A DNA stretch of 59,045 nt from a virus. Taxonomy: Duplodnaviria > Caudoviricetes. The stretch covers positions 1-59,045 of the IMG/VR virus record IMGVR_UViG_3300027859_000017; one strand, written 5' to 3'. A model generated the notes under the pieces. The model did no database searches. It saw nothing but the letters and a program-made list of their open reading frames with translations, and was not told the DNA's origin. Every line of letters begins with the position of its first letter. The stretch's first letter is position 1. Below are positions 1 to 57,039 of this stretch, piece by piece. The position numbers and the translations under genes were made by a program.

Positions 1-219
1 TCTATATCTCTCATGGACCCCGTTGAAAACCTTGCAGTTCGCATGATGAAAGAAGCGGCAGACAAGACTGCAACTTTAGCTGGTGATGGCACAACTACAG
101 CTATTGTTTTAACTGAAGCTTTAGTAGAACATGGGACTTGCGCAATGGGTGAGGATATAAATAGAACCGAAGTTTTAAAATGTTTAGTTGACCAAACGAA
201 ATTAGTTGTAGAGGAGTTG
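1..219. repeat. Terminal direct repeat (assembly overlap), copy 1
   Basis: Identical to 58827-59045 except A93 vs G58919 (synonymous Thr codon); lies inside groEL, so it is a circular overlap. Confidence 0.97.
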
Positions 220-1416
220 AAAAGTAAAAGCCACGAAATAGATAAGAGTAAGCTTAGAGATGTAGCTGTTATATCGGCCAATAATGATAATGAGATTGGA
301 AAAATAATCGCTGATGTATACGAAAGTGTAGGTCAAGACGGAATTGTTACTGTGGAAAAATCACAAACCAGCGATACTTATTTTGAAACCACAAATGGTA
401 TTAAAGTAGACAGAGGTTATTTATCTCCTTTATTTATAAATGACCAGAAAAAAGATGAGTGTGTACTAGAAGATGTTTACATCATGGTGTCGGATGCAGA
501 GATAAACAATATACTTCAAATAGAAAATATTCTCAAACCTATAATAGCCGACAATAAAAAATTATTAATCATTGCTCCATGCTCAACCAATGTGACAAAC
601 ACTTTGGCAGCAAACGTAATGAAAAGAAATTTAAAAATATGTTCTATCACGCCTCCTTCTTTTGGATACAAGCAACATGAGTTAATGCAAGACATAGCTT
701 TATCTGTGGGGGCAACATACTTCAGCGAGAAGACAGGGGATGACTTGAGTATTATTAATTTTACTGATTTGGGTCATGCGGCTAAGGTGATAGTTAGTCG
801 AGACTCAACGGTCATCCTTAAAGATGAAACAAAAACTAACGAATCTCAGATTGAAGAAAGAGTAAAAGAATTATGGATTGCTCATGAGAATGCAAGTAAA
901 AAAGCAGATAAGGAATTTATTGAATCAAGGATTGCATCTTTGACGGGTGGAATAGGCGTTATATATGTAGGAGGCAATACAGACTTAGAACAAAAAGAGT
1001 TGTATGATAGAGTAGATGATGCAGTCTGTGCTGTGAAGTCAGCACTAGAGGAAGGTATATTGCCTGGCAGTGGACTAGCTTTGTACCGAATTTCGCAAGA
1101 TTTTGAAAAAAAGAAGACTAAAGACAAAAATTTAAAAATTGCTTACGCAATTTTAGCGAACTCTCTAAAGTCTCCTTTGACCCAGATACTAGAAAATGCA
1201 GGATTAAGTGTAGAGGAAATTTATAAAGATGTGAAAGGTTGGAAAAAAGGTTATGACTTGAAAAATGAAAAGTATGGTGACTTAATAAAAATGGGAGTCA
1301 TAGACCCAATGAAAGTTACAAAGTGTGCGCTTCAAAATGCAGTGAGTGTAGCAGTAACTATTCTTTCTACTAATGCAATAATAACAATGGCACGTTCATA
1401 TGAAAGCGATAGGTAA
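1..1416 (+). CDS. groEL: Chaperonin GroEL, 3' part (full gene starts at 58635 and wraps, about 535 aa)
   Basis: AGDGTTTA ATP-binding motif, DRGYLSPLF, RVDDAVCAVKSALEEGILPGSG, GVIDPMKVT; no C-terminal GGM tail. Confidence 0.97.
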   Translation, partial: SISLMDPVENLAVRMMKEAADKTATLAGDGTTTAIVLTEALVEHGTCAMGEDINRTEVLKCLVDQTKLVVEELKSKSHEIDKSKLRDVAVISANNDNEIGKIIADVYESVGQDGIVTVEKSQTSDTYFETTNGIKVDRGYLSPLFINDQKKDECVLEDVYIMVSDAEINNILQIENILKPIIADNKKLLIIAPCSTNVTNTLAANVMKRNLKICSITPPSFGYKQHELMQDIALSVGATYFSEKTGDDLSIINFTDLGHAAKVIVSRDSTVILKDETKTNESQIEERVKELWIAHENASKKADKEFIESRIASLTGGIGVIYVGGNTDLEQKELYDRVDDAVCAVKSALEEGILPGSGLALYRISQDFEKKKTKDKNLKIAYAILANSLKSPLTQILENAGLSVEEIYKDVKGWKKGYDLKNEKYGDLIKMGVIDPMKVTKCALQNAVSVAVTILSTNAIITMARSYESDR

Positions 1417-14376: not shown

Positions 14377-14600
14377 TGGATATTAGAAAAATATCTGTTG
14401 GTCCTGACTATAAATCAGGTGCTATGCACTATATAGTAGGTCAAAAGGTATTAAATAATTCTCATACTATACATTTAATTAAGTATGATTCTGAAAAACA
14501 GTCTTTTAAAATTTATATTGAAGAGAAAGATGTTGTAGTACTATGGAAAGAATTTACTTCTACTATTCCTGTTTCTATAGAGTATAATATAAATTTTTAA
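14376..14600 (+). CDS. Hypothetical protein
   Basis: 74 aa, translationally coupled at both ends. Confidence 0.7.
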   Translation: MDIRKISVGPDYKSGAMHYIVGQKVLNNSHTIHLIKYDSEKQSFKIYIEEKDVVVLWKEFTSTIPVSIEYNINF

Positions 14601-15163
14601 TGAAATCCCCATTTCAGTTTATTGTAAAACCTGTAAATGGCAAAAGATATGATAATACAAAAAAAATATCAGGAATAGATTTTATTACAAGCACTTCACA
14701 AGAAGACCATAAATTTTCAAATCGTTATGCCCAAGTAGTTTCAACTCCTGTTAATTATTCAGGCCCTATACAAATAAACGATACTTTGTTAGTACATCAT
14801 AATGTGTTTAAATTTTATTATGATATGCATGGTCAAGAAAAAAGCGGTAAAAGTTTTTTTAAAGACGATTTGTTTTTTATTGACAATGAACAATTTTTTA
14901 TGTATAAACATAAAGACCAGTGGCATGCTCATGATAGATATTGTTTTGTAAAACCTGTTTCTACTGAAGACTCTTATATATTTAAACCTTTTTCAGAAGA
15001 GCCCTTAGTGGGTGTTATGAAATATCCAAATAATTATCTTAAATTAAAGGGTGTAAAAAAAGGTGATAAAATATCTTTTCAACCAGAAAGTGAATATGAG
15101 TTTATAGTAGATGGAGAAAAGTTATACAGAATGTTTGACCATCAAATTGCTTTACTATTATGA
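14600..15163 (+). CDS. Possible tandem GroES-like protein
   Basis: Two halves: FIVKP...AQVVSTP...INDTLLV and CFVKP...GVMKY...GVKKGDKISF...IVDGEKLYRM. Confidence 0.45.
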   Translation: MKSPFQFIVKPVNGKRYDNTKKISGIDFITSTSQEDHKFSNRYAQVVSTPVNYSGPIQINDTLLVHHNVFKFYYDMHGQEKSGKSFFKDDLFFIDNEQFFMYKHKDQWHAHDRYCFVKPVSTEDSYIFKPFSEEPLVGVMKYPNNYLKLKGVKKGDKISFQPESEYEFIVDGEKLYRMFDHQIALLL

Positions 15164-22743: not shown

Positions 22744-22780
22744 AAAAGAAGGGGTGTCTTTAAAGACACCTCCTCTTTTT
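22744..22780 (+). terminator. Intrinsic terminator whose stem is the 16-bp palindrome
   Basis: AAAAGAAGGGGTGTCTTTAAAGACACCTCCTCTTTTT after the capsid stop; palindrome copy at 22754-22769. Confidence 0.75.
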
Positions 22781-52999: not shown

Positions 53000-54124
53000 T
53001 TAATATTTAAATGTTTTGTGATACTTCTCTCCTTTTGATTGTTCTGTTATGTTAAAGTAAATCCAACACTTTTTTGCACCTCCATTCAAAAGTATGTTTA
53101 TTTCTTTTCGTCTGTACCATGTCGGGTGGTTTTCCAAAGCGTCTAAACTTTCTAAGGTTGGCATATCTACATTGAACACATCTACTTCTACATTGTGCCC
53201 TTTGCCTTTCTCATTCAAAAGAAATGGCAACCCCTTAACAATTAAGGGGTACCTGTCTTGAGTCGTTCCGCTACCGACAAACTCTTGGTCTTGCAAAAAA
53301 TTTCGGTGGTTTCCAAACCCTCTTTTCAAAGTTCCATACACTGCAACAAGTTCTTTGTTGCCCTCGTACTTCGGTGTATCAAATTGTGTAAAATCCATTA
53401 CTTGTTCCTTAGAAAAACTTTTATCACAACTTACACAATAGTATTTGTTCTCGGACAACTCGCTTGCATCATACATCAAATCGTTGGTGCACTGAACACA
53501 GACATTGCTTTCATTTTTCCAATCAAACTCGTCTTCAAATTCATTATGGTTTTCAAAAACAAATTCACTTGGGGCACTGGTACCAACTCCTACATTACCC
53601 GCCCACCTCGAAATATAACTCGGTGTCTTGTAGGTTGTGAACACATTGTCTTTAGAGTACCAAACTTTATCTTTGTGTGTCCAAAGGTGCTTGTTGTATA
53701 TTTGGAAAGTTCTGTTTCTTGTGTTAATGGTTGCAAACCTAACCAAAGAATACTGAGCAAGTTTTTGTTTCCAAATATGTCTTTCAATCTTACCCAACTT
53801 AATGGCTAAATCTTGAGTGTCGGTCATGTTCTTGTTTCCCAACTCGCTAATAGTTCCGTTCATCATGAGCAGTTCGTTGTGCTTCTTACCACATTTAAAT
53901 GGGTGCGTGTTTTCTTTACATATTTTTCCAATCGTTGCGTATCTAAAATGAGCAATGAAGGGTCTTGTTGTATTTAGTTTTTTGTAATCTTTAGATTCAT
54001 GATAAGATACTTTGAAAGTATCCAACCATACTATCCCCAATCCATGAGGATTTTTCCTCGCTGAATTTTTCAGGACTTGTTGCGAAATCTTGTTTCGCTT
54101 TTGTTTTATTATTATTATACACAT
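53000..54124 (-). CDS. Class II glutamine amidotransferase + Zn ribbon + gamma-glutamylcyclotransferase fusion
   Basis: N-terminal MC, NPHGLG, AHFRYAT, NTHPF, MNG, TDT; CVQC/CVSC; VAVYGTLKRG..NH, LDALE..P.WYRR. Confidence 0.85.
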   Translation of the reverse strand: MCIIIIKQKRNKISQQVLKNSARKNPHGLGIVWLDTFKVSYHESKDYKKLNTTRPFIAHFRYATIGKICKENTHPFKCGKKHNELLMMNGTISELGNKNMTDTQDLAIKLGKIERHIWKQKLAQYSLVRFATINTRNRTFQIYNKHLWTHKDKVWYSKDNVFTTYKTPSYISRWAGNVGVGTSAPSEFVFENHNEFEDEFDWKNESNVCVQCTNDLMYDASELSENKYYCVSCDKSFSKEQVMDFTQFDTPKYEGNKELVAVYGTLKRGFGNHRNFLQDQEFVGSGTTQDRYPLIVKGLPFLLNEKGKGHNVEVDVFNVDMPTLESLDALENHPTWYRRKEINILLNGGAKKCWIYFNITEQSKGEKYHKTFKY

Positions 54125-54146
54125 TTGTTTTAAGTATTTAAGTGGG

Positions 54147-54162
54147 GTGTCTTTGAAGACAC
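54147..54162. repeat. Palindrome variant GTGTCTTTGAAGACAC in 5' leader
   Basis: One central mismatch; between promoter 54189-54220 and ATG 54124. Confidence 0.85.
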
Positions 54163-54188
54163 TACCCTAAGGTTAAACATAATTTAAA

Positions 54189-54220
54189 CAAAGGTACGAC
54201 ATTCTATCGACATATACAAA
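54189..54220 (-). promoter_or_regulatory. Consensus Bacteroidota sigma promoter
   Basis: TTTG-N20-TACCTTTG on - strand. Confidence 0.85.
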
Positions 54221-54234
54221 TACCTCTGTTGCTT

Positions 54235-54292
54235 GATAATGAGGGCGGAAACTAATCCACCCTTTCGAGTACACAACTCTCATCAGATTATC
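54235..54292 (-). ncRNA. Type I hammerhead ribozyme (downstream of phosphatase)
   Basis: GAUAAU CUGAUGA GAGU-UGUGU-ACUC GAAA GGGUGGA-UUAGUU-UCCGCCC UC/AUUAUC; full core, three stems, CUC cleavage site at 54241/54240. Confidence 0.9.
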
Positions 54293-54314
54293 TATTGCGA
54301 AATATTCTTTCGCA

Positions 54315-54836
54315 TTAAAAGTTTCCTTCTGCAACTTGAAAACATTTTAATCCCCTGCTTCGCCACATCTTAACGACTTTATCCCTGTCATCAAAGACGC
54401 ACACAATTCTGTGCATAGCAAAACTTGGGTCGTCCCATTCATCAGTAATTTCTTGCTCTTGCTCTATGAGTGCGTCCAACCATTCCTCTTTTAAAACATC
54501 ATCGGGTTTCATCAACTGGCTTGTGGGTCTCATCTTTATGTCGTCATAATATATGTTGTACTTCTCCAACCACTGCTCAGTGGCTTCTTGCGTTCCCGCT
54601 GAACGACCGCTAAATATTATTATTCGGTAATCTTTCCACAAGTGCTTCGCAATTTCTACCACTGCATGATTTGGCCTGTCAAGTTTGATATTGTTCGGGT
54701 CATAGAATTTGTCCCAATCAATCTTGCCATCTGGCTTACTGGATACTTCCCTTCTTTTGCTTATATCGGCAAGTGTTCCATCTAAGTCAAATATTATTAC
54801 TTTATTGTGTTTTCTATTTAAGTGTTTTAGATTCAT
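54315..54836 (-). CDS. HAD-family polynucleotide 3'-phosphatase (T4 Pnkp C-terminal domain-like)
   Basis: IFDLDGTLA, FSGR, MRP...KPDDVLKEE, FDDRDKVVKMWRSRGLKCFQVAEGNF closely parallels the T4 Pnkp C-terminus; no kinase domain. Confidence 0.88.
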   Translation of the reverse strand: MNLKHLNRKHNKVIIFDLDGTLADISKRREVSSKPDGKIDWDKFYDPNNIKLDRPNHAVVEIAKHLWKDYRIIIFSGRSAGTQEATEQWLEKYNIYYDDIKMRPTSQLMKPDDVLKEEWLDALIEQEQEITDEWDDPSFAMHRIVCVFDDRDKVVKMWRSRGLKCFQVAEGNF

Positions 54837-54852
54837 AATTATTATTTTAATT

Positions 54853-54920
54853 GTTACTTACAAAGGGGGTTTTTAATCCCCTCTGTTTCGCCACCTTTCT
54901 GTGTTGCTCGTCAGAGTAAC
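54853..54920 (-). ncRNA. Type I hammerhead ribozyme (upstream of phosphatase)
   Basis: GUUACU CUGACGA GC-AACACAGAAAGGUG-GC GAAA CAGAGGGG-loop-CCCCUUUG UA/AGUAAC; GUA cleavage site at 54859/54858. Confidence 0.88.
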
Positions 54921-54923
54921 TAA

Positions 54924-55073
54924 TTAAACTAAATATTCGGCGACTTTCTTTTCGGCCTGTTCTCTTGTTAGACCAAATTTATCCATGAGGTTTTTAACTC
55001 TGATTAACCTCCTGTTTTCTCTCCTCGCTTTTGCGTGGTGTAAAATGTTATTTTCTATTCTGTGTCTATTCAT
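54924..55073 (-). CDS. Small basic protein (49 aa)
   Basis: MNRHRIENNILHHAKARRENRRLIRVKNLMDKFGLTREQAEKKVAEYLV; stop lies 3 nt before the hammerhead. Confidence 0.6.
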   Translation of the reverse strand: MNRHRIENNILHHAKARRENRRLIRVKNLMDKFGLTREQAEKKVAEYLV

Positions 55074-55083
55074 AATATTTATT

Positions 55084-55326
55084 TTATATTAATTCATTTA
55101 TGTATTCAAAAGTTCTTTGTAAAGATTTTAGGTCTTTTTCTACCCAGTAATTTACATCTTTTAAATGGGTAAATTTTACCCAATCAAGAGCGTGGAGTAA
55201 CTCAAGTTTCTTTTTTATCTTATTTCTTTCTATATCTATATAGGTTAGGTTTGCAAATAACTTAATTATCTCTTTATTCTTTTTTTGATAATTGGTTTTG
55301 GCTTCTTGTATATTAGTATTTTTCAT
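55084..55326 (-). CDS. Hypothetical protein
   Basis: 80-aa ORF. Confidence 0.6.
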   Translation of the reverse strand: MKNTNIQEAKTNYQKKNKEIIKLFANLTYIDIERNKIKKKLELLHALDWVKFTHLKDVNYWVEKDLKSLQRTFEYINELI

Positions 55327-55897: not shown

Positions 55898-55942
55898 AGA
55901 GCGGGAGGGGACTCGAACCCCTCTAAATTTCCAAACCGCTCT
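55898..55942 (-). ncRNA. tRNA-like mini-element (acceptor stem + T arm only)
   Basis: AGAGCGG-UUUGGAAAUUUA-GAGGGG-UUCGAGU-CCCCUC-CCGCUCU. Confidence 0.65.
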
Positions 55943-55946
55943 GAGA

Positions 55947-55962
55947 GTGTCTTTAAAGACAC
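55947..55962. repeat. 16-bp palindrome after amidoligase stop
   Basis: Exact copy, extends to 20 bp GAGTGTCTTTAAAGACACTC. Confidence 0.9.
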
Positions 55963-55965
55963 TCC

Positions 55966-57039
55966 TTAGGGCATAAATACACTAACTTCAGACCCTCTTA
56001 CCAAATCAACCCATTCATCAACTAATACATCGTAGTTCCTTTTCAGGTCTGTGTCAAACCATACCAAATGGGCTTGATGAAAAAGGTCTCTCGCTGGTCT
56101 AAAAGCCCCCCTATTGGTTACCTCGCTTTTAATCCATTTCCAACCCTCTACATAAGGAATTACATACCTGTTGAATTTACTGGTCAAAATCATCCTTCTA
56201 AAATGCCCCGCCAGTGTTCCCAACCAGTCCACCTTTTCAGCGTTCCCCTCGTACATGCTCATCAGTACAGGTCTAATAATCTTAAGGAATTTTTTATGCG
56301 TTCCATTCGGATTATTAATTGAAAAGTCTAAAAGATGATAACAAAGTTCATATCTCCTCATCATCTGCTTGACGCTCTGTACTCTGCTCGGGAGTCGCAA
56401 CTCAATAGCGTGGTCCATGATTTTTACTGGGCAGTATTTATCATGCCTACCCCCTAAAAAATCATTTAAATTACTATTGTAGTCACTGGGTTTTATTGAT
56501 AGGTTTCTATTGCAGTAGCTATTCGTTAACCTCTTTCTGAAAATTGCGTAAAAGATACCAAAGTTTTTTCTGATTTTCTCAGCAACTTCATAACCGCTTA
56601 ACCCATGAACGCTCAAAGTAATATGCCCCCCGCAACTTCTATCGGATGGGCTAAACTCATCAGAGATAATTTTCTTTGCTTCAACAAACATATTGAAAAC
56701 TTTCGTTCTCCAAAGTGATTTCGGCAACAGAGGAAGTACATGAGTAACCGCTTCAACTCCGCAAGAGGAATCAGTTTCAAACCCTTTAAAAAGCGGGTAC
56801 TCTATAACTGCCCCCCTGTGAAATCTTATTTTTTCAATTTCGAAACCGATATTAAATTTGCTTTCGATTTCATTCGGGTCATCCGCATATCTTTCAACAA
56901 CATTCGTTGTTCTTATCCCTCGTAAATCAACCTTTTTCGCTTTGTTGATAAACTCGGGGTCGGGGCTTCCATGATACCCCCTGACTCTACCTCTGTCAGC
57001 ATCGCCAGTAATTTCAAATTTTACTCCTGTATCAATCAT
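55966..57039 (-). CDS. Putative amidoligase (COOH-NH2 ligase, Amidoligase_2-like)
   Basis: IGFEIE, TDSSCGVEAVT, SCGGHITLS, KY, IELRL. Confidence 0.75.
   Translation of the reverse strand: MIDTGVKFEITGDADRGRVRGYHGSPDPEFINKAKKVDLRGIRTTNVVERYADDPNEIESKFNIGFEIEKIRFHRGAVIEYPLFKGFETDSSCGVEAVTHVLPLLPKSLWRTKVFNMFVEAKKIISDEFSPSDRSCGGHITLSVHGLSGYEVAEKIRKNFGIFYAIFRKRLTNSYCNRNLSIKPSDYNSNLNDFLGGRHDKYCPVKIMDHAIELRLPSRVQSVKQMMRRYELCYHLLDFSINNPNGTHKKFLKIIRPVLMSMYEGNAEKVDWLGTLAGHFRRMILTSKFNRYVIPYVEGWKWIKSEVTNRGAFRPARDLFHQAHLVWFDTDLKRNYDVLVDEWVDLVRGSEVSVFMP

Follow-up and report, generated by a model that had tools for sequence, protein, structure and literature searches.

Two hammerhead motifs flank a phosphatase gene

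The DNA analyzed here is IMG/VR virus record IMGVR_UViG_3300027859_000017 (Duplodnaviria; Caudoviricetes), a record of 59,045 bp which was examined over its whole length and is called the window below. The record is 97% complete, and its G+C content is 32.6%. Structural genes lie on the plus strand, and the minus strand from approximately 58 kb down to 41.5 kb carries replication or early-type genes. Within this leftward block, two motifs with the architecture of a type I hammerhead ribozyme, which we named HH1 (54853..54920, minus strand) and HH2 (54235..54292, minus strand), stand on either side of one open reading frame (ORF) that encodes a phosphatase of the Pnkp type (54315..54836, minus strand). 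The subject of this study is the pair of motifs and the RNA fragment which they would release.

When HH1 is read on the minus strand from 54920 to 54853, it consists of GUUACU, the core segment CUGACGA, stem II GCAACACAGAAAGGUGGC, GAAA, stem III CAGAGGGGAUUAAAAACCCCCUUUG and UA|AGUAAC, where the bar marks the predicted cut (54859/54858). HH2, read from 54292 to 54235, consists of GAUAAU, CUGAUGA, stem II GAGUUGUGUACUC, GAAA, stem III GGGUGGAUUAGUUUCCGCCC and UC|AUUAUC, and its predicted cut is at 54241/54240. In HH2, stem II is GAGU-UGUGU-ACUC and stem III is GGGUGGA-UUAGUU-UCCGCCC. The conserved core nucleotides C3-U4-G5-A6-N7-G8-A9 and G12-A13-A14 are present in both motifs, and the core-adjacent pairs A-U (1.1-2.1) and G-C (10.1-11.1) are intact. 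Both motifs also have the A15.1-U16.1 pair and an H (not G) at position 17, that is, UA| in HH1 (UC| in relatives) and UC| in HH2. Each motif is made of three helices, namely an open stem I of 6 bp and the loop-closed stems II and III. Stem III has 7-8 bp, and stem II has 4 bp in HH2 and is a longer, bulged helix in HH1. Reading of the sequence shows that stem I of HH1 can be extended to 54928-54846 by 7 further A-U pairs past one bulged A.

A strict motif scanner run over both strands of the window reported HH1 and HH2 as the only sites, and the same scanner reported no site in 20 dinucleotide shuffles of the window and of 28 related loci. We also scanned the window, unfiltered, with a covariance model (R3) that was built from 8 hammerheads of distant relatives, leaving out the lineage of the window. 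Over the 59-kb window this model gave 60.2 bits (E 9.5e-16) for HH2 and 41.8 bits (E 4.1e-10) for HH1, and the next-best match had an E of 0.12. We take HH1 and HH2 as genuine hammerheads, and their self-cleavage is predicted from the sequence.

The fragment between the two predicted cuts

The predicted cuts delimit exactly 618 nucleotides (nt; 54241..54858, minus strand), in agreement with the bounds proposed in a first-pass annotation of this DNA. The fragment starts with AGUAACAAUU at its 5' side and ends with UCCGCCCUC at its 3' side. It contains a leader, a single ORF (54836-54315), which is that of the phosphatase, and then the HH2 core at its 3' end. According to the established chemistry of hammerhead cleavage, the two ends of the fragment would be a 5'-OH and a 2',3'-cyclic phosphate, as the annotation had also stated. 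The leader (54837..54858, minus strand) is an A/U-rich stretch of 22 nt between the predicted HH1 cut and the start codon of the phosphatase, and its first 13 nt are the 3' strand of the extended stem I of HH1. On the other side, the predicted HH2 cut lies 74 nt past the phosphatase stop codon. A small hairpin, UGCGAAA-GAAUA-UUUCGCA (54296..54314, minus strand), is located between this stop codon and HH2, and it is identical in two close relatives, L001 and L002.

The phosphatase ORF encodes a stand-alone HAD phosphatase of 173 amino acids of the T4 Pnkp type. It matched the profile PF25109 (HAD_PNKP) with 100 bits against a cut-off of 27.6 (1.7e-28), and it also matched phrog_505 and phrog_415 ('polynucleotide kinase'). 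Among the sequences of known structures, it matched Pnkp1 (4xrp, 7.6e-12), an isolated phosphatase domain (5uj0) and T4 PNK (1ltq). Like these T4 Pnkp and bacterial Pnkp1 proteins, it has a HAD-type DxDxT phosphatase domain that aligns end to end, and the DLDGT, SGR and DDR motifs are retained in the alignment with 4xrp and 5uj0. Unlike T4 Pnkp and Pnkp1, it has no kinase domain; the matches cover only the phosphatase halves (160-301 of 1ltq and 178-312 of 4xrp). It is justified from these alignments to regard the predicted product as a Pnkp-type 3'-phosphatase, and in this respect the earlier assignment of a phosphatase was sound. T4 Pnkp also opens 2',3'-cyclic ends. No RNA ligase was found among the 36 larger ORFs that were scanned against PHROGs.

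Conservation and covariation of the hammerheads

Both ribozymes are retained in the two phages L001 and L002, of which the phosphatase ORFs are 93-94% identical to that of the window. The natural variants of HH1, in relatives and in metagenomes, are changed at N7 and H17 only. In the HH2 of relatives, loop III is variable and one stem III pair is changed from U-G to U-A, and L001 and L002 differ from the window at no other positions of the motifs than these. The same variants of HH1 and HH2 occur in contigs of four other metagenome runs. Exact-core scans of viral contigs with stem II-specific HH1 cores and HH2 cores yielded only the two near-identical relatives.

Other metagenomes, namely runs X3 (record 18) and X12 (record 6), also contain HH1-like ribozymes. 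These copies share the core and stem II with HH1 (window 54880-54918) and then diverge into another stem III, where the loose end can be read as a GCAA-looped hairpin and then GUC|AGUA. This suggests that they are further members of the family in other contexts.

For the analysis of covariation, the alignments were built through covariance models because MAFFT misaligned the hammerhead stems. In alignment A7, which contains 8 relatives and none of the lineage of the window, 97.9% of the pair cells were standard pairs, and 16 of the 18 pairs were changed on both sides. These values were reached in none of 500 shuffles, and sliding of the partners left 33-41% paired. Alignment A6 showed the same picture. 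The type I hammerheads of the distant relatives have the same architecture with unrelated stem sequences.

Hammerheads in related phages

The relatives were reached via the gene downstream of HH2, which we call gene 'G', and they comprise 28 loci with 57-98% protein identity. On the gene strand of these loci, the strict scanner found 34 hammerheads (9 of type I and 25 of type III), and on the opposite strand of the 28 loci it found none. At least one hammerhead was present in 22 of the 28 loci, or in 23 when a covariance-model match in L102 is counted. All the hammerheads of the 28 loci are intercistronic, that is, they lie between ORFs. As for the Rfam models, Hammerhead_3 matched 12 of the type III copies with E values from 2e-7 to 2e-3, and a 13th copy (L100) passes the gathering threshold. 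The type I copy of L103 reached 32.7 bits, the threshold being 34.

The type I copies begin from -6 to +22 nt relative to the upstream stop codon. The leaders that would remain after type I cleavage (10 cases) are 22, 22, 22, 22 and 23 nt long in five cases and 1 nt long in two cases, and the others are 33, 57 and 116 nt long. A motif, A(A)UUAAAAU, often recurs 3' of stem I. In the two copies L086:2236-2297 and L089:2299-2362, the following ORF has its start codon inside the 3' strand of stem I, so that a leader of 1 nt, essentially a leaderless mRNA, would be left after cleavage.

The genes bracketed by hammerheads are various: the phosphatase in the window, approximately 9 ORFs over 3 kb in L097, and an ORF called 'A' (300-360 amino acids) with two small ORFs in L099. 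When five whole records of relatives were scanned with the type I model, 1-2 sites were obtained in each, and three of the five had a single site. The content of a bracket is also variable because an insertion in L001 adds an ORF of 48 amino acids. This insertion of 160 nt (L001:1325-1500, equal to L084:2113-2288) lies between the HH1 cut and the phosphatase gene, and the same type of variant was seen in run X3 as a loose end at 54845.

The type III hammerheads of the relatives (L086-L111) are approximately 50 nt long, for example L096:4143-4193 and L109:666-714, 1046-1094 and 2525-2573. In these hammerheads, stem I has 7 bp and a GUGAGUGC-like loop, stem II has 4 bp and an AAAA loop, and stem III has 4-7 bp. 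Up to four copies (L109) occur in a locus. No type III hammerhead was found in the window or in its two closest relatives.

Other elements in the same intercistronic slots

The slot after ORF 'A' could be compared in 19 loci. It holds a type III hammerhead in 11 of them, a type I hammerhead in 1 and a tRNA-like minihelix in 3, and nothing was detected in the remaining 4. The three loci with the minihelix represent one lineage, namely the window and two near-identical relatives. In the slot after gene 'G', type I hammerheads, type III hammerheads, tRNA-like elements and one true tRNA are found.

In the window, the minihelix (55898..55942, minus strand) is 45 nt long and consists of an acceptor-like stem of 7 bp and a canonical T arm, GAGGGG-UUCGAGU-CCCCUC. 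Its 5' neighbours are the stop codon of the 357-residue ORF 'A' and then a palindromic hairpin (55947-55962). In a folding computation it took up the predicted structure (z -4.1), and a double change from G-C to U-A is seen in L084 and L085. Against Rfam, it gave a weak mascRNA-like match with E 0.46, far below the family threshold, and ARAGORN called no tRNA in the window or in the 28 loci. RNase P and RNase Z accept minihelices composed of an acceptor stem and a T arm. The minihelix would presumably be cut in trans by RNase P or RNase Z, and a ribozyme would cut in cis; both kinds of element would have the same consequence, that is, the transcript would be severed at that point.

Another recurrent element is a palindromic hairpin, GGGUAGUGUCUUCAAAGACACCCC (54143..54166, minus strand), 38 nt upstream of the gene that follows HH2. 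It contains one of 6 copies of a 16-nt palindrome, GTGTCTTYRAAGACAC, in the window (at 22754, 43952, 51608, 54147, 55947 and 57853), whereas 0.02 copies are expected. The palindrome usually follows closely on a stop codon or precedes a start codon by 32-38 nt. Among the relatives, it either makes up stem III of a type I hammerhead (L086 and L089) or lies directly 5' of type III hammerheads. Its role may be that of an operator, or that of a hairpin which is terminator-like or protective.

Predicted processing of the leftward transcript

We consider it likely, with some reservation, that HH1 and HH2 are active type I hammerheads that cut a leftward multi-gene transcript, and that their function is intercistronic mRNA processing. 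The course of events would be as follows. The leftward transcript would be cut at HH1 and at HH2 during its synthesis. The upstream RNA would then end in the HH1 fold, and the product between the cuts would be a linear, single-gene phosphatase mRNA of 618 nt with a 5'-OH and a 2',3'-cyclic phosphate. The 5' part of this mRNA would be the unstructured A/U-rich leader of 22 nt, of which 13 nt would have been held in the extended stem I before cleavage, and the 3' end would be closed by the compact HH2 fold with its GC-rich stem III hairpin. The downstream amidotransferase/cyclotransferase gene (gene 'G') would be uncoupled and may possess its own start signals. In this scheme the ribozymes would be one of several interchangeable modules, the others being the type III hammerhead and the tRNA-like substrate of RNase P or RNase Z. 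Cleavage in the infected cell would also be expected to have effects on the stability and the translation of the mRNA. Bacteroidota rely on A-rich leaders that are free of Shine-Dalgarno sequences.

With regard to start signals, a promoter-like match was seen at 54220-54189 (minus strand), between HH2 and the next gene, to a consensus of TTTG, 20 nt and TAnnTTTG. In the window, this Bacteroidetes-type consensus was matched 10 times, compared with an expectation of 4.2. Most of these matches lie within ORFs, and the one at 54220-54189 is a weak lead. A scan for sigma-70 promoters and terminators gave results at chance level.

Several observations weigh against processing of this kind. Rfam scanned over the whole window at the gathering threshold reported no family, and its hammerhead models, including RF00163, reported neither HH1 nor HH2 at E<=10 in 53900-55200 or in narrow windows of 91 and 96 nt; the sole trace in the narrow windows was a truncated Hammerhead_3 match of 12.5 bits (E 3.2). 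The minimum-energy structure given by ViennaRNA for the HH1 and HH2 motifs is not the hammerhead fold, and the 6-bp stems I are weak (-2.2 kcal/mol in HH2 and -4.1 kcal/mol in HH1). The covariation was counted on model-fitted alignments, which lean towards the structure. HH2 leaves a leader of 116 nt, and this is a poor fit to a pattern of defined leaders. In a lookup of sequencing runs, the locus was found in no RNA run and only in DNA contigs. Finally, a benefit of cleavage for the stability or the translation of the mRNA is something that we infer.

Alternative explanations

Among the other explanations, we first consider that cleavage is conditional, that is, that the element is a riboregulatory switch in which stem I of HH1 sequesters the leader, or in which the speed of cutting depends on Mg2+, temperature or a factor and thereby sets the timing or the ratio of the expression of the phosphatase and of the downstream gene. 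The extension of HH1 stem I over 13 of the 22 leader nt and the weakness of both stems I would suit such a switch, and regulated cleavage of phage hammerheads is discussed in a passage of Perreault et al. (2011, PMC3088659). On the other hand, the motifs have no aptamer-like extra domain, their canonical cores are those expected for fast constitutive cleavage, and the hammerheads of L099 and L102 share the leader motif without a matching 5' flank. We think that a switch is unlikely.

It may also be supposed that the hammerheads mark, or travel with, exchangeable cassettes of accessory genes. The phosphatase would then have arrived together with its ribozyme borders, and cleavage would be secondary or self-serving. 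The hammerheads are indeed sporadic among the relatives, the phosphatase is restricted to the sub-lineage of the window, and the content of the bracket varies, as is seen from the extra 48-residue ORF of L001 and the same variant in another metagenome. In other samples, moreover, HH1 variants with a different stem III exist. Against this, no mechanism is known by which hammerheads mobilise DNA in a phage with double-stranded DNA, and there are no repeats and no integrase nearby. In addition, many of the hammerheads adjoin the core genes 'A' and 'G' at fixed slots, and a role in expression fits this better than a selfish element does. We regard the cassette explanation as improbable.

The first-pass annotation had proposed another fate of the 618-nt fragment. 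According to this proposal, an RtcB-type ligase of the host seals the fragment into a translatable circular mRNA that does not cut itself again, and the encoded 3'-phosphatase limits the sealing and thereby closes a feedback loop. If this were true, a phage would possess a natural circular mRNA that codes for a protein, which would be remarkable. The chemistry of the fragment ends suits RtcB, as is established, and the ORF is that of a Pnkp-type phosphatase with its catalytic motifs. The junction was also described well: of the six positions at which GAUAAU faces AGUAAC, four are paired, and the second and the fifth from the core are mismatched. The computed energy of this hybrid duplex is +1.6 kcal/mol, compared with -2.2 (HH2) and -4.1 kcal/mol (HH1) for the native stems, and the predicted fold of the junction has no stem I, so that it is a reasonable inference that a joined circle would re-cut poorly. 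Three genomes have a pair of type I hammerheads, and in their hybrid stems I, 4, 5 and 4 of the 6 positions are paired; at least 4 pairs were found in 26% of 50 cross-genome combinations. Shared ancestry explains these values of 4, 5 and 4 (n = 3) equally well. Circular products were raised as a possibility by Perreault et al. (2011, PMC3088659).

There is also evidence on the other side. RtcB (PF01139) is absent from the 97%-complete phage record. Of 81 genomes that belong to one candidate order, only 11 were found to have RtcB; this is the order of a Bacteroidetes metagenome-assembled genome (MAG) with a related contig, and it is a weak proxy for the host. The link to the phosphatase is not conserved: no hammerhead was found at E<=1 in any of the 77 loci that surround homologues of the phosphatase gene (42-56% identity), and none of 10 related hammerhead-bearing phage records (9 of them at least 90% complete) has the phosphatase gene, the window serving as the positive control. 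These comparative data argue that the presence of the phosphatase between the ribozymes is a coincidence. Several relatives have a lone type I hammerhead in the whole record, and the same slots hold tRNA-like elements, of which the processing would not give substrates of RtcB. RNase P processing yields ends that RtcB cannot join. The design of the junction is inconsistent as well, since the hybrid of L097 (5 of 6) would re-form a hammerhead and that of L099 has a mismatch next to the core. Perreault et al. (2011, PMC3088659) state, in the relevant passage, that circular or spliced products were sought and none was detected (data not shown there).

We also tried a helix that would juxtapose the ends of the fragment by pairing its 5' 10 nt with the stem II region of HH2. 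This candidate was rejected. The pairing of the two ends is unremarkable, which speaks against a circle, since 847 of 9032 genomic 13-mers pair equally well, over at least 10 nt. The fold energy is likewise at chance level, because 3172 of the 9032 13-mers and 260 of 2000 shuffles are as low.

Thus, the premises of the first-pass annotation, namely the ribozymes, the ends, the junction and the phosphatase, held up, and the ligation into a circle and the switch between the phosphatase and RtcB are unsupported; we consider this fate of the fragment very improbable. A broader version, in which hammerheads, minihelices and the palindrome would be swappable 'punctuation' that sets mRNA ends, leaders and lifetimes, was judged jointly with the circle and its feedback, and this joint estimate is equally low.

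Comparison with known systems

The intercistronic mRNA processing that we favor has a close parallel. In prophages, multiple hammerheads flank varying genes; transcripts of approximately 2 kb were cleaved in vitro, and processing into single-gene mRNAs was proposed (Perreault et al. 2011, PLoS Comput Biol, PMC3088659, in the passages on these prophages). As in those prophage clusters, at least as they are described there, hammerheads that lie near one another, all in the sense of the genes, enclose one gene or a short block of genes of which the identity is not constant. Gene-flanking hammerheads of phages are of a kind already known, and the pair in the window adds another case. According to a part of a review, the purpose of the hammerheads of bacteria and phages was still undefined in 2019 (Weinberg et al. 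2019, PMC6765202).

The present case differs from the passages of PMC3088659 in several points. Here the phages are uncultured marine phages of approximately 55-65 kb which are related to phages of Flavobacteriia, the flanked gene encodes a Pnkp-type phosphatase, tRNA-like elements and the palindrome occur in the same slots as the ribozymes, and a leader of 22 nt is recurrent. We found no description of this system in the literature on phage hammerhead circles with RtcB or on hammerheads of Flavobacterium phages. The interchange of hammerhead types and tRNA-like elements in a slot, together with a fixed leader, was also not found in the literature, and the supplements of PMC3088659 might hold marine examples.

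Another similarity is with retrozymes and viroid-like RNAs (Cervera and de la Pena 2020, PMC7229834; de la Pena et al. 2020, PMC7761336). As described in parts of these reports, a pair of hammerheads sets free an RNA whose 5'-OH and 2',3'-cyclic phosphate ends allow a tRNA ligase or an RtcB-type enzyme to circularise it. In these systems, again according to these parts, both ribozymes belong to copies of one repeat, so that a full hammerhead is restored in the circle; the RNAs are non-coding, and circles have been observed. Unlike in retrozymes, HH1 and HH2 differ from each other in all three stems, and the fragment would be an ordinary mRNA that is known here from DNA.

Finally, the minihelix of the window resembles mascRNA and tRNA punctuation in that an acceptor stem and a T arm stand in an intercistronic slot. 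The phage group as a whole is an unusually clean comparative case, with dozens of hammerheads, in two topologies, that are confined to the gene strand and to the spaces between ORFs. The rules of strand and position, the recurrent 22-nt leader and the replacement by tRNA-like elements make the idea of mRNA punctuation directly testable.

Gene context and probable host

Upstream of HH1 there is an ORF of 49 amino acids (54924..55073, minus strand), of which the stop codon lies 3 nt before HH1. Downstream of HH2, gene 'G' (53000..54124, minus strand) encodes a class II amidotransferase-like N-terminus (MC...) fused to a gamma-glutamyl cyclotransferase. It matched PF06094 at 2.4e-21 and PF13230 weakly. 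ORF 'A', the 357-residue ORF of the window (55966-57039, minus strand), is conserved, has no Pfam match and is syntenic with gene 'G' across the phage group. Gene 'G' and this ORF possibly form a module for the modification of a peptide or a metabolite.

When the 901-nt region was compared by blastn with GenBank phages, no match was obtained. In the one GenBank relative, MW202828.1, the motif scanner found neither a hammerhead nor the palindrome at a distance of up to 5 kb from gene 'G'. The terminase of the window is 78% identical to that of one uncultured GenBank phage, and its nearest kin are in phages of Flavobacterium, Cellulophaga, Tenacibaculum and Maribacter (46% identity). Because the terminase is closest to phages of these genera of Flavobacteriia, the host is probably a member of the Flavobacteriia.

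We also tried to call the host from GroEL-based loci in genomes. These loci were short phage-like contigs in assorted MAGs, and no host was assigned in this way; the binning of the related GroEL contigs into MAGs is probably due to phage contamination. In the window itself, GroEL-like (13-1416, plus strand) and GroES-like (14600-15163, plus strand) chaperonins are encoded by the phage, and they matched phrog_5725 (1.5e-116) and phrog_13932, respectively.

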